Assembly (NCBI GenBank): GCA_003170475.1
Contig: PMZI01000051.1
Location: 249-64,248, forward strand
DNA length: 64,000 nucleotides
Direction of reading: 5' to 3'
From: Ignavibacteriota bacterium
Lineage (GTDB): Bacteria; Bacteroidota; Ignavibacteria; UBA10030
This document shows positions 20,363 through 27,258 of this stretch, piece by piece. Positions within the stretch are counted from its first letter, which is position 1, and every line of letters begins with the position of its first letter. The translations under genes and the position numbers were made by a program. Below the pieces are notes generated by a model. The model saw only the letters and a list, made by a program, of their open reading frames with translations, ran no database searches and was not told where the DNA came from.

Positions 20363-20731
20363 TTGAGTGTTCTTATGCTTGAAAGCTATGTCCCGATCTT
20401 TGTGATGATTGCCGGGGGTGTTATCTTCGGCGTCGTCATGGTGAAGCTGAATGAATGGTTCGGCCCTCATCGGCCCAACGATGAAAAGCTCTCTACCTAT
20501 GAAAGCGGCATGGAACCCATCCGGAGTGCCCGCGAACGGTTCTCTGTCAAGTTTTACATGGTCGCCATGCTCTTCATCCTTTTCGACATTGAAGTTGTGT
20601 TTCTCTATCCTTGGGCTGTCTCATTCAAGCAATTGGGACTGGGTGGATTTGTGACGATGGCTGTCTTTATCTTTGTGCTGTTTCTCGGATATTTCTATGT
20701 GTGGAGAAAGGGAGCGCTGGAATGGGATTAG
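20363..20731 (+). CDS. nuoA: NADH-quinone oxidoreductase subunit A
   Basis: Three TM helices; ...YESGMEP...[13 protein letters not shown]. Confidence 0.9.
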
Positions 20732-21261
20732 AACATGTATTCGGTGACAGCTTTGTAACAACGAAAATTGACGAAGCGATCAATTGGTGCCGCAAAAACT
20801 CTCTGTGGCCGATGCCGATGGGGATCTCCTGCTGCGCGATTGAGATGATGGCATTTGCGGGGCCTCGGTTTGACGTGGCTCGATTTGGCTCTGAAGTATT
20901 CCGGTTTTCGCCTCGCCAGTCGGATCTCATGATCGTGGCCGGGACCACAACCTACAAGATGTCGAAGGTGGTACGGAAGATCTACGATCAGATGCCTGAC
21001 CCGAAATGGGTCATCGCAATGGGTGCCTGCACATCTTCGGGCGGAATGTATCGAACATACTCCGTCGTGCAGGGCATCGACCAGTTTCTGCCTGTGGATA
21101 TCTATGTCGCCGGCTGTCCGCCTCGACCCGATAATTTGATCAATGCGCTGATGAAGCTCCAGGAGAAGGTACAGCGTGGCGAAAGCAAAGGAAGCTTCCC
21201 TGCGTATGTCGGAGACGTAAAGCTCAACCAACCGCAACCCTTATCGATCATTACAGGTTGA
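20722..21261 (+). CDS. nuoB: NADH-quinone oxidoreductase subunit B
   Basis: [15 protein letters not shown]...[22 protein letters not shown] (N2 cluster ligands). The start overlaps the nuoA stop. Confidence 0.9.
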
Positions 21262-21264
21262 GAG

Positions 21265-21747
21265 ATGAATGAAGTTGTGCTTGAGAAACTGAAGAGCCGT
21301 TTCGCAGACGGCGTTCTCGAAGTGAAGGAATTCCGGGATGAGCTCACCGTCGTCGTCCCGAAACAGCGGATCGTGGAAGTCTGCAGATTCCTGAAGGAGG
21401 ATCCACAGCTTCAATTTGAGTTTCTGGCGGACGTGTTCGGTATTGATATGTACACGCCGACAAAAAGATTTGGAGTCGTTTACAATCTCTATTCCATGAA
21501 GAACAAGAATCGGATCCGCGTCAAGGTTTTCACCGAAGAGGATGATCCGAAAGTCGCGACGGTGACGGGTGTCTTTGGCACTGCAAATTGGCATGAGCGC
21601 GAGACCTTCGACATGTTTGGGATTATTTTTGAAGGTCACCCCGATCTTCGCCGAATCTACATGCCGGACGACTTCGAGCACTATCCTCTCAGGAAGGATT
21701 TTCCACTGATGGGTATCCCCGGTTCCCTTTCTCTCCCGAAGAAATAA
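21265..21747 (+). CDS. nuoC: NADH-quinone oxidoreductase subunit C
   Basis: 30-kDa subunit pattern ...WHERETFDMFGI.FEGHPDLRRI. Confidence 0.9.
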   Translation: MNEVVLEKLKSRFADGVLEVKEFRDELTVVVPKQRIVEVCRFLKEDPQLQFEFLADVFGIDMYTPTKRFGVVYNLYSMKNKNRIRVKVFTEEDDPKVATVTGVFGTANWHERETFDMFGIIFEGHPDLRRIYMPDDFEHYPLRKDFPLMGIPGSLSLPKK

Positions 21748-24970: not shown

Positions 24971-25091
24971 GCCTTTCTTGGGAAGATGGCAAGCCTCCGC
25001 CACTGCAACAAAAGGCTTGGAACCACTGTATATTGTGAATGTTGAGGTGGAAGAGCGGAGAAGGAACACGAACCCTTTTCCCTACGTCTAT

Positions 25092-25724
25092 ATGAGTGAA
25101 TCCGGAAACATAAAACGGCCGATGGCTTACCAAACGTTAGCGCAGCCGGCGGAAGTCCCTCTTCAGGCAAAAAGTGATGAGGTTCTCATAACGCTGGTGC
25201 ATCAGGGGGAACACGGCGCCTATCGTATTCTGGTCGAGCGGTATCAGGAGCGAATTAGGAACCTGATCTATTCTATTTTCCACGAACGGGAGATCGTGGA
25301 CGATCTGTCGCAGGAAGTATTTATCAAAGCGTATGAAGCGCTGTCGCAATTCCGGTTTCAATCTTCATTCTATACATGGTTGTATCGGATCGCGGTCAAT
25401 AAAAGCCGCGATGAGCTGCGCAAACGAAAGGTCCGGCGATGGTTTTCCCTTCAGACAATGATGGAGACTTCCGACAAAGAACTCGGAAGCAAAATTGTTG
25501 TGGAACCTCAGGACAGGGAAAACCAGGAGCTGCTTGCCGCTGGTTTGCAGTCGCTTCCGGAAAAATACCGAGTAGCAATTGTACTAAAAGATATCGATGG
25601 TCTGTCATATGAGGAAATCGCGGAGATTATGGAATGTGAGCTTGGTACAGTAAAGTCAAGATTGTCGCGCGCACGCTCGATGCTGCGCAAAGTCCTCGAG
25701 CCTCTGTTCAAGGAGGGGGTGTGA
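25092..25724 (+). CDS. ECF-type RNA polymerase sigma-70 family factor
   Basis: Region 2 (...YRILVERYQERIRNLIYSIFHER.IVDDLSQEVFIKAY...FYTWLYRIAVN) and region 4 (LPEKYRVAIVLKDIDGLSYEEIAEIMECELGTVKSRLSRAR). Start chosen at Met 25092. A GGAAC motif lies ~70 nt upstream. Confidence 0.85.
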   Translation: MSESGNIKRPMAYQTLAQPAEVPLQAKSDEVLITLVHQGEHGAYRILVERYQERIRNLIYSIFHEREIVDDLSQEVFIKAYEALSQFRFQSSFYTWLYRIAVNKSRDELRKRKVRRWFSLQTMMETSDKELGSKIVVEPQDRENQELLAAGLQSLPEKYRVAIVLKDIDGLSYEEIAEIMECELGTVKSRLSRARSMLRKVLEPLFKEGV

Positions 25725-25725
25725 T

Positions 25726-27258
25726 ATGAAACCTCTTCTGAAGGCGGAGCTTTCTCAATTGCTCTCATCGTATGTCGATGGAGAGCTCGACGATCGGCAA
25801 ACGCTGCTTGTGGAAGAGATCGTCGCGAAAGACGCGGAGGCACGCAAAGAGCTCGAAGAGCTGAGGGCTCTGAAGAATCTTGTCGCGGCAAAGAAACGCC
25901 TTCCCGAGTCTATTGGGTTCTGGACTCGCGTCTCAACCGAGATCGAACGCCAAAAGAAGGAGGAAGAGAATCTTCTTCCGTTTCCCCGGCGCTACTTCCC
26001 TCTCGTTTTCGGTGCGACTGCCGTCTTTGCAATCGTCGTTGGTGTCGTTCTTTACCAGCAGCGCGCATCGGTAGTGAATTTCGTGAGCAGGCAGACCGAG
26101 CGTGTCCAGAAAGCAGTCGGGGACAATGTGCTGAAGGGCTCCATCATGCCGTTGTTCTCCCGTGTCGACAAGAACCAGGCATTACAATTCGCAATGTTCG
26201 GCACGTTGCCGCTCGACGCCAAAGCCGAGACGGAGTTTCGTGTGAACGAAGACTCCGCGCGAGGGTATACGATCGACGTCGATAAGAAGGGAGCCCGAAA
26301 AACTCCCGTCGTGACCGTGAAAGAGTTTGTCGACGAAGTTCATCCGACACGCGTCCAACGTGAGATCATCGATTCCTTGCTGGATCTGGGGAGGCAGCGC
26401 CTTGAGGGTTCGGTGTTTGTCGCTGAAGATAAAGCCATAGCGATTGATCCGCAGCTTGCGCGATTTAACCGTGTGATGCTTTCGGGAATTGCAGCAGCAT
26501 TGGAACCTGAGCAACGGTCGCGGATGGAGACATTTCTGCGGGTCCGGGGTGCACCCTACATGATTTCCGGCGGTCGGAAGGCATCGGAATCTTCGGAACG
26601 AATCCTGCGCACGATGCGAGTCACGTCGCGACCTGAGCCATTCCTCGTTCTGACCCCCGGCACGGTCGTCATGTCGAACCTGCGGTTGGATATGGACAGC
26701 CTCCGCCGCCATTTTCAGCATTTTGAAGAGGGCCGCGAGCGCGTGATGGTCAATATGAACGGACTTATTCGCCGGATTGCTGAACAGCATGAAGACATGG
26801 GCCGACAGAGCTTCACGATATCGATGCCGCAAGTGCGGGTGACGAGCGATTCGGATTTCATCAGCATTCAAATTGGGAGCACGTCGGAAGAAGAGATGTC
26901 GGTGCCAATGCCGGAGATTTGGGTAAAGCCACGCTATCCTGGGCATTTTGGAACCACAGGAAGACCACGATTCCCGTCACCCTACATCAACTTCCAGTTC
27001 AATAACATGGATATGGACAGTATGGTGGAGCGAATGCTGAGGGGAGGTGTCCCTCCCGGTTTTGAATTCCTGATGGGAGATATTCCGGGGCACGACGGGC
27101 GACCGCAAATGAATGCGGGCAAACTCAAACGGGCACTTGACAGCGTGTTCCTGGCAAAAAAGGGCGGACGTTCAAAACTCGATTCGTTGATGCGCGAGAT
27201 GGATAAGCGTGAACAACGTCGAGTGCGGGAACTGAAGGAGAAGGACAGGCAAGAGTAG
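25726..27258 (+). CDS. Putative anti-sigma factor: N-terminal cytoplasmic anti-sigma domain, one TM helix, ~400-aa uncharacterized extracytoplasmic domain
   Basis: Start overlaps the sigma stop (GTGATATGA). N-terminus ...[13 protein letters not shown]... resembles the RseA/anti-sigma N-domain. TM helix at ~88-110. The large C-terminal domain ends in a coiled-coil K/E/R-rich tail. Confidence 0.65.

Follow-up and report, generated by a model that had tools for sequence, protein, structure and literature searches.

Why do genes for an extracytoplasmic function (ECF) sigma factor and a putative membrane-bound anti-sigma factor stand directly behind nuoF, at the end of one part of a split set of complex I genes, and does this position say anything about what the pair regulates? 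The question is raised by a stretch of 64,000 nucleotides (nt) from an Ignavibacteriota bacterium (assembly GCA_003170475.1, contig PMZI01000051.1, positions 249 to 64,248 of the forward strand; hereafter, the window), in which a preliminary description had presented the sigma/anti-sigma pair as a new element and proposed an envelope-stress or respiration-linked module with a sensor domain of no recognizable motif. Here, we argue that the pair is probably an autonomous, positively autoregulated ECF signaling module, and that its place behind nuoF reflects inherited gene order rather than coregulation with complex I. The observations on which we build are the domain make-up of the two proteins, a conserved promoter, flanking terminators, synteny, and an outer domain without known fold. 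Coordinates are collected in table 1.

A Conserved ECF Promoter in Front of an RpoE/SigW-Like Sigma Gene

The first gene of the pair encodes a protein of 200–210 amino acids (aa) whose only domains are sigma-2 and sigma-4 and which scores 103 bits with the sigma70-ECF model TIGR02937, against a cutoff of 42.9; standing in one operon with its cognate anti-sigma gene and behind an AAC...CGT promoter, it has the features of the ECF (group 4) sigma factors. Its best specific NCBIfam models are RpoE (TIGR02939) and SigW, and we call it RpoE-like rather than an RpoE orthologue because its score with the RpoE equivalog model (156.1 bits) lies below the cutoff of 236.15. Translation probably starts at ATG 25122 (200 aa) rather than at ATG 25092 (210 aa), since the −10 box ends 1 nt 5′ of the latter codon, this codon is lost in two related loci (L009 and L017), and gene callers are divided between the two versions.

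The GGAAC motif that the preliminary description had likened to a −35 box is followed, 17 nt on, by CGTCTA. As a matter of fact, GGAAC-N16/17-CGTC was found upstream of the sigma gene in all 30 loci (spacer of 17 nt in 26 of them and of 16 nt in 4), and it is kept even in distant relatives whose sigma factors share 41–44% identity with that of the window. This one site accounts for 27 of the 40 matches to the motif in 395 kb of related loci. AAC...CGT being the canonical ECF promoter architecture, the natural reading is that the promoter is served by its own sigma factor, and positive autoregulation is presumed on this ground.

A Predicted Transcription Unit Between Two Hairpins

To judge from the sequence, the pair forms a transcription unit of its own, with its own promoter, between two terminator-like hairpins. 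The first, behind nuoF, is strong: an 89-nt stretch reaches −43.6 kcal/mol (z = −3.8), a stability equaled by none of 200 shuffled versions, and about 20 of 26 related loci have a hairpin with a T-run between nuoF and the sigma promoter. The order announced in the preliminary description, a terminator and then an ECF sigma factor after nuoF, is thus what we find, the sigma gene being the next open reading frame (ORF). With regard to the hairpin itself, its arms in the window read CCCGTGCAG...CTGCACGGG, instead of the common arm (A)CTCGTAT...ATACGAG(T) that the post-nuoF hairpins of L010, L011, L013–L017, L022, L024, L026, and L030, divergent genomes among them, share around loops that vary.

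The second hairpin, behind the anti-sigma gene, is weaker (z = 0.07 for a 90-nt stretch) and was not listed by the consensus scan; it is probably a terminator. Downstream of it come dut, an AI-2E transporter gene, and a tetrapyrrole methylase gene. Between this hairpin and dut, the sequence TATATTTG at 27372–27379 fits the Bacteroidetes-type TAnnTTTG −7 promoter box, and the consensus scan also marked TTGGCA-17-CAAAAT at 27358–27386.

Within the unit, the sigma stop codon (TGA, 25722–25724) and the anti-sigma start codon (ATG, 25726) are one base apart (TGAtATG), rather than joined in the ATGA overlap first described. This one-base gap and an AAGGAGG Shine–Dalgarno sequence inside the 3′ end of the sigma gene, just 5′ of the anti-sigma ATG, suggest that the two genes are likely to be tightly coexpressed.

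A Likely Class I Anti-Sigma Domain and a Single Membrane Segment

No Pfam family scores above threshold on the 510-aa product of the second gene. Below threshold, 23 of 24 family members match zf-HC2 at E ≤ 1 (the best at 3.3e-6, the window protein at 0.0093), the only matches in sequence-profile searches of the PDB were RsiW (the best), RseA, and MucA (E 0.045–0.9), and a Foldseek search with a model of the whole protein (predicted local distance difference test score [pLDDT] 63) retrieved the cytoplasmic domain of MucA (probability 0.97, E 0.37), the sole matches of nontrivial probability being MucA, ChrR, RsiW, and RslA. Whatever the method, the matches fall within the first ~120 residues, mostly within the first ~80, and all of them are anti-sigma N-terminal domains. 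A class I anti-sigma N-terminal fold is therefore likely; we stop short of calling it proven because each match lies below its curated cutoff. The protein has no cysteine at all, hence no HxxxCxxC motif, and is thus not a zinc-binding anti-sigma factor.

Hydropathy shows a single peak (19-residue mean of 2.5 from residue 91, none elsewhere), and all 24 family members in the alignment are hydrophobic over this segment; the lack of a transmembrane (TM) helix, which the preliminary description had named as a reason to give up its proposal, is not what the protein displays. A conserved FWTR/LLPFPR motif occupies the juxtamembrane region. With a cytoplasmic N-terminus and a single TM segment, residues 113–510 would lie outside the cytoplasm.

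It could be argued that the 510-aa protein is a membrane-anchored periplasmic protein with some other role and no tie to the sigma factor beyond a common operon, given that every anti-sigma domain match is subthreshold and that 80% of the protein is without detectable relative of known function. However, the N-terminal domains of RsiW, RseA/MucA, ChrR, and RslA are the sole matches by any method, zf-HC2 recurs in nearly the whole family, and the gene is paired with a sigma gene at every locus, in both the close and the distant tier of relatives described below and in every context, so that we regard this alternative as very improbable. The preliminary description had seen in the pair an ECF sigma factor accompanied by its membrane anti-sigma factor, whose extracytoplasmic domain of ~400 aa is unrecognizable, and our own assignment is the same.

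An Outer Domain That Matches No Known Fold

Among 5.8 billion proteins, 95 relatives of the anti-sigma factor were found (~300–540 aa, mostly full-length at ~500–520 aa), all of them from Ignavibacteria or from “Bacteroidota” metagenome-assembled genomes (MAGs) apparently of that class, and a hidden Markov model search of 1.84 billion cluster representatives (clusters at 50% identity) yielded 249 clusters at E ≤ 1e-10. The best-conserved part of the protein is formed by residues 113–300, in the outer domain, and this domain looks restricted to Ignavibacteria.

Modeling the region C-terminal of the membrane had been suggested as a check. AlphaFold2 predicted residues 113–510 with confidence from 85 sequences (mean pLDDT 75.5, predicted template modeling score 0.66), much of residues ~30–180 of the domain model being above pLDDT 90. 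The C-terminal domain matched nothing in Pfam, NCBIfam, or PDB sequence-profile searches, and Foldseek returned nothing significant for the model against the PDB (best E 0.46) or against BFVD (best E 0.29), with TM-scores ≤ 0.15 in both. With respect to the PDB and BFVD libraries, the predicted outer domain is thus uncharacterized and possibly a new fold.

Conserved Gene Order Within One Clade and a Distant Tier Elsewhere

The nuoF–sigma junction is present in 26 of the 26 related genomes that span it, with anti-sigma identity down to 32%, and an Ignavibacterium album MAG (L016) has the order nuoA-F-sigma-antisigma of the window. Housekeeping genes over ~15 kb around it are as collinear as the junction: most loci of sufficient length keep the order TsaD-TrpA-YceG-Big5-nuoABCDEF-sigma-antisigma-dut-AI2E-methylase, and some of the most divergent loci differ 3′ of the pair. 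The comparison of synteny that had been proposed alongside the preliminary description therefore returns both a junction that is always kept and flanks that are kept as well, and the pair, far from being a new element, is a fixed feature of a broad Ignavibacteria clade, just as the housekeeping block around it. In one divergent relative (L019), genes for a PspC-domain protein and a LiaF-like membrane protein stand between frr and polA (15639–16819); no PspC/LiaF-like counterpart was found at the equivalent position of the window (42910–43175).

If the pair were linked to respiration, it would sense the state of complex I, of the membrane, or of the quinone pool, or would control nuo genes, for example the unlinked nuoGHI. 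The constancy of the junction at such low anti-sigma identity speaks for this possibility, and so does the fact that the junction outlasts a rearrangement of the downstream flank in two loci (L019 and L022). Beyond this conserved adjacency, however, the link is unsupported. The terminator and the independent promoter that part nuoF from the sigma gene insulate the pair from nuoF, and the unrelated housekeeping genes on either side are equally syntenic. Looking for the ECF promoter elsewhere, nuo genes included, had been recommended: the window contains two matches when 1.8 are expected, none of them before nuoA or nuoJ, and no second conserved site was found in the 395 kb of related loci, upstream of nuoA and of the nuoJ cluster included. 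The second match of the window, at 12903, lies antisense inside cinA and is within chance expectation; likewise, a recurring minus-strand match within the sigma gene corresponds, in reverse complement, to the sequence coding for the conserved DEVLITL stretch and is not a site. As the distant tier of the family is found away from nuoF as well, the respiration-linked part of the preliminary proposal is not supported, and we deem it quite unlikely.

A variant of this idea would combine a new, Ignavibacteria-only sensor fold in the outer domain with a real regulatory tie as the reason for its fixed place behind the NADH-oxidizing half of complex I, for instance as a checkpoint of envelope or respiratory-chain assembly whose regulon would include the unlinked nuoGHI or other respiratory genes. 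The combination appears to us just as improbable as the simple respiratory link.

The distant tier of the sigma/anti-sigma family (anti-sigma identity of 22% over ~400 residues, sigma identity of 41–44%, same promoter) occurs in three separate contexts (L035/L036, L037/L038, and L039), one of them an Ignavibacteriaceae MAG (P0225), and none beside nuoF. Given this different setting, the module would move and function as a unit, adjacency to nuoF being a property of one clade. In this tier, the sigma ATG lies 6–7 nt past CGTC, which suggests that the corresponding mRNAs are leaderless. Overall, the pair seems to belong to the core regulators of Ignavibacteria and to be passed on vertically.

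The distant contexts also bring up another mode of control, in which the pair would be the output or a partner of a general stress pathway based on RsbU/RsbV/RsbW-like partner switching, and not a proteolysis-driven envelope sensor. Indeed, in all three independent contexts the distant pair is directly followed by genes for a SpoIIE phosphatase, a STAS protein, an RsbW-like (HATPase_c_2) kinase, and another SpoIIE protein, and in two of the three a STAS gene precedes it as well. Yet neither the 64-kb window nor the close loci yielded any SpoIIE, STAS, or RsbW-like gene, and a membrane-anchored class I anti-sigma architecture needs no partner switch. We hold this pathway to be unlikely for the pair, if a little less so than the respiratory link. 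The stretches concerned, in which the distant pair is followed by the partner-switching cluster with its further SpoIIE/GAF/PDZ proteins, are 8945–20557 of L035, 8842–16229 of L037, and 9399–18901 of L039.

A Proposed Mechanism and Its Known Counterparts

Under the reading that we favor, an autonomous and autoregulated ECF module, the cytoplasmic N-terminal domain of the anti-sigma factor (non-zinc, of the RseA/MucA type) would, at rest, bind the RpoE/SigW-like sigma factor and hold it at the inner membrane. An extracytoplasmic signal would be read by the lineage-specific domain of ~400 aa, and the anti-sigma factor would thereby be inactivated, in all likelihood by regulated proteolysis, that is, site-1 cleavage, RseP-type site-2 cleavage, and cytoplasmic degradation, a release postulated by analogy with RseA, MucA, and RsiW. 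The freed sigma factor would then transcribe its own GGAAC-N17-CGTCTA promoter along with a further regulon. The position behind nuoF would be inherited order, kept within a core-genome block that is strongly collinear in one Ignavibacteria clade.

Several points weigh against this reading and are best considered together. At the protein level, the window protein scores 16.5 bits with zf-HC2 for a cutoff of 22.2, and 34 bits (2.9e-8) with the NCBIfam anti-sigma model NF052375 for a cutoff of 100, both being below the curated threshold. The scan for promoters of a regulon covered ~64 kb of this genome and ~20 kb per relative, and the signal, the proteases, and the regulon enter the scheme by inference. 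Lastly, L019 and L022 have rplM-rpsI-rpsB-tsf-pyrH-frr downstream of the pair and keep the nuoF junction, which leaves room for weak selection that might act on the nuoF–sigma adjacency, this being the sole hint of such selection.

The closest known counterparts are the RpoE–RseA system of Escherichia coli and the AlgU–MucA system of Pseudomonas aeruginosa. As in the window, where the anti-sigma fold is likely and autoregulation presumed, they combine an ECF sigma factor made of r2 and r4 domains (RpoE being the best-scoring model for the window sigma factor), a cotranscribed, single-pass anti-sigma factor with a non-zinc N-terminal domain, and an autoregulatory promoter with a GGAAC-type −35 box. 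Besides its score of 156 bits where the RpoE equivalog asks for 236, the window system differs from RpoE–RseA by the absence of rseB/rseC-like genes behind the pair, where a terminator and dut are found instead; by its outer domain of ~400 aa, unrelated in sequence and in predicted fold to that of RseA, which measures ~100 aa; and by its −10 box, CGTCTA, when the E. coli RpoE consensus is of the TCTGA type.

The SigW–RsiW system of Bacillus subtilis offers a second point of comparison: SigW is among the best models for the sigma factor, RsiW is the best PDB match for the anti-sigma N-terminus, and the SigW promoter consensus, AAC-N16/17-CGT, has the architecture seen here. RsiW is a single-pass protein released by regulated intramembrane proteolysis, a route that we can only infer for the window anti-sigma factor. 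Unlike RsiW, which binds zinc through HxxxCxxC, the latter has no cysteine, and the extracytoplasmic domains of the two proteins are unrelated.

A Known Split of the Complex I Genes

With regard to the nuo genes themselves, nuoA, B, C, D, E, and F are contiguous and codirectional on the plus strand (ORF span 20363–24899), as previously noted, and Pfam matched all six. The starts listed for nuoA (ATG 20375, as read from the sequence) and nuoB (ATG 20722, overlapping the end of nuoA by 10 nt) are the probable ones. As NuoF scores above its equivalog cutoff and NuoB, NuoC, and NuoE above their subfamily cutoffs (table 1), these are real complex I genes, and NuoE and NuoF together supply the N-module, which oxidizes NADH.

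The membrane-arm genes resume near the end of the window. The preliminary description had correctly placed nuoJ, nuoK, and nuoL behind an ABC transporter pair; its start for nuoJ, 61194, has to be moved to 61107, so that 19 nt are shared with the ABC-2 permease gene in front of it. The pair in question (58721–61125) consists of a DrrA/GldA-like ABC ATPase gene and this permease gene, directly 5′ of nuoJ, and the overlap suggests that it belongs to one operon with the membrane-arm nuo genes. Two contigs, L031 and L032 (the latter from NCBI GCA_003155535.1), are 100% identical to the last 7–12 kb of the window. On L031, which is identical over 51712–64000, nuoL is followed by nuoM, a gene for a CitMHS_2-family transporter, and nuoN; nuoM (TIGR01972, 626 bits) and nuoN (TIGR01770, 459 bits) are above their cutoffs, so that the membrane arm, NuoJ to NuoN, is represented by J, K, and L in the window and by M and N on L031. 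The transporter gene between nuoM and nuoN (13985–15412 of L031) encodes 475 aa of the CitMHS_2/IT superfamily, and no NCBIfam assignment was obtained for it.

The absence of nuoG, nuoH, and nuoI from the window, reported in the preliminary description, is borne out by Pfam scans, which found none of them among its long ORFs. This split, with nuoA-F and nuoJ-N in two places and nuoGHI presumably elsewhere, had been suspected to be typical of the lineage. It is a known Ignavibacteria arrangement and adds nothing to published genome descriptions: the passages on NADH dehydrogenase in the I. album genome paper report all 14 subunits of NDH-1, encoded in three clusters, and a separate 11-gene nuo operon without nuoEFG (Liu et al. 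2012, PMC3362086), and the corresponding passages on Candidatus Thermonerobacter describe a three-cluster NDH-1 and an 11-subunit operon as in I. album (PMC6338057). The distribution of the nuo genes, presumably 14 in the window's genome too, over several clusters is a likeness between it and both of these organisms, as far as those passages go. In the passages of the former paper on sigma factors, nuo genes, and NADH dehydrogenase, a sigma/anti-sigma pair behind nuoF is not mentioned (PMC3362086).

A second complete nuo set, as envisaged in the preliminary description, would have turned the split genes into decaying paralogues. The second set described for I. album has 11 subunits and lacks nuoEFG (PMC3362086, in the passages on this operon), and the 26 genomes that span the nuoF–sigma junction all carry the split genes in intact, strongly conserved form (73–93% aa identity for NuoD and 79–90% for NuoF), for which reason degenerate remnants are ruled out.

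Outside this class, the complex I (nqo) genes of Rhodothermus marinus are also divided into separate operons, and its nqo10-14 operon holds a gene for an NhaD antiporter. An unrelated transporter gene within the membrane-arm operon is a common feature, the CitMHS_2 gene between nuoM and nuoN being at most a putative counterpart of the NhaD gene. R. marinus belongs to a different phylum, and we know of no ECF pair in its nqo arrangement.

Other Features of the Window

The remaining long ORFs of the window encode housekeeping functions only, among them recA, recX, polA, rpsB-tsf-pyrH-frr, a 2-oxoacid dehydrogenase/lipoate cluster, and several tRNA synthetases. The compact dehydrogenase/lipoate cluster (32570–38979) comprises genes for dihydrolipoamide dehydrogenase, LipB, a fused E1 alpha/beta protein (708 aa), E2, and lipoyl synthase. 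Two adjacent class I tRNA synthetase genes of the Glu/Gln type (52168–55328; 483 and 570 aa, overlapping by 4 nt) stand behind a tRNA-Ser gene. Three AI-2E family transporter genes are found in the 64 kb (7877–9987, minus strand, and 27890–29200, plus strand), two of them in tandem.

Table 1. Features of the nuoA-F, sigma/anti-sigma, and nuoJ-L regions, in positions of the window
Feature	Position	Strand	Basis and remarks
nuoA	20375..20731	+	Pfam Oxidored_q4, 4.3e-40; ORF open from TTG 20363
nuoB	20722..21261	+	Pfam Oxidored_q6; NCBIfam NuoB subfamily, 242 bits (cutoff 116)
nuoC	21265..21747	+	Pfam Complex1_30kDa, 3.2e-49; TIGR01961, 158 bits (cutoff 122)
nuoD	21748..23007	+	Pfam Complex1_49kDa, 1.4e-111
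nuoE	23139..23624	+	Pfam 2Fe-2S_thioredx; TIGR01958, 169.4 bits (cutoff 142.4)
nuoF	23631..24899	+	Pfam Complex1_51K, SLBB, NADH_4Fe-4S; TIGR01959 equivalog, 610.7 bits (cutoff 558.65)
Intrinsic terminator of nuoA-F operon	24922..24979	+	G+C-rich hairpin (24922–24970), then U-rich tract
ECF-type promoter	25063..25090	+	GGAAC (−35) 25063–25067, 17-nt spacer, CGTCTA (−10) 25085–25090
ECF sigma factor gene, RpoE/SigW-like	25092..25724	+	Pfam Sigma70_r2, 59.5 bits; Sigma70_r4_2, 65.6 bits
Anti-sigma factor gene (likely), 510 aa	25726..27258	+	Anti-sigma domain ~1–60, TM ~89–111, extracytoplasmic 113–510
Predicted TM helix of anti-sigma factor, residues ~89–111	25990–26058	+	Sole hydrophobic peak
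Predicted extracytoplasmic domain of anti-sigma factor, residues 113–510	26062–27255	+	C-terminal of TM helix
Candidate terminator after anti-sigma gene	27302..27343	+	10-bp G+C-rich stem, then UUUCGCUUUUUUG; hairpin in minimum free energy and centroid folds
nuoJ	61107..61706	+	Pfam Oxidored_q3; gene call on 100%-identical contig; NCBIfam NuoJ, 5.2e-42, below cutoff
nuoK	61712..62011	+	Pfam Oxidored_q2 on called gene
nuoL	62105..64000	+	Cut by window end; 656 aa on identical contig

Implications

What is novel here is confined to one more member of the very large, known class of ECF systems, with an uncharacterized sensor domain; our search of the literature found no ECF group described for Ignavibacteria. 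Because its model is confident and matches no known fold, the outer domain is a sensible choice for structural work and for ligand searches, and because the promoter is cleanly defined, it should allow prediction of the regulon wherever a complete genome is available. In bacteria, no one-step route of transmembrane signaling is commoner than ECF sigma/anti-sigma pairs, so that a new sensor domain may stand for a new input, in what is apparently a core regulator of a poorly studied class, the Ignavibacteria.

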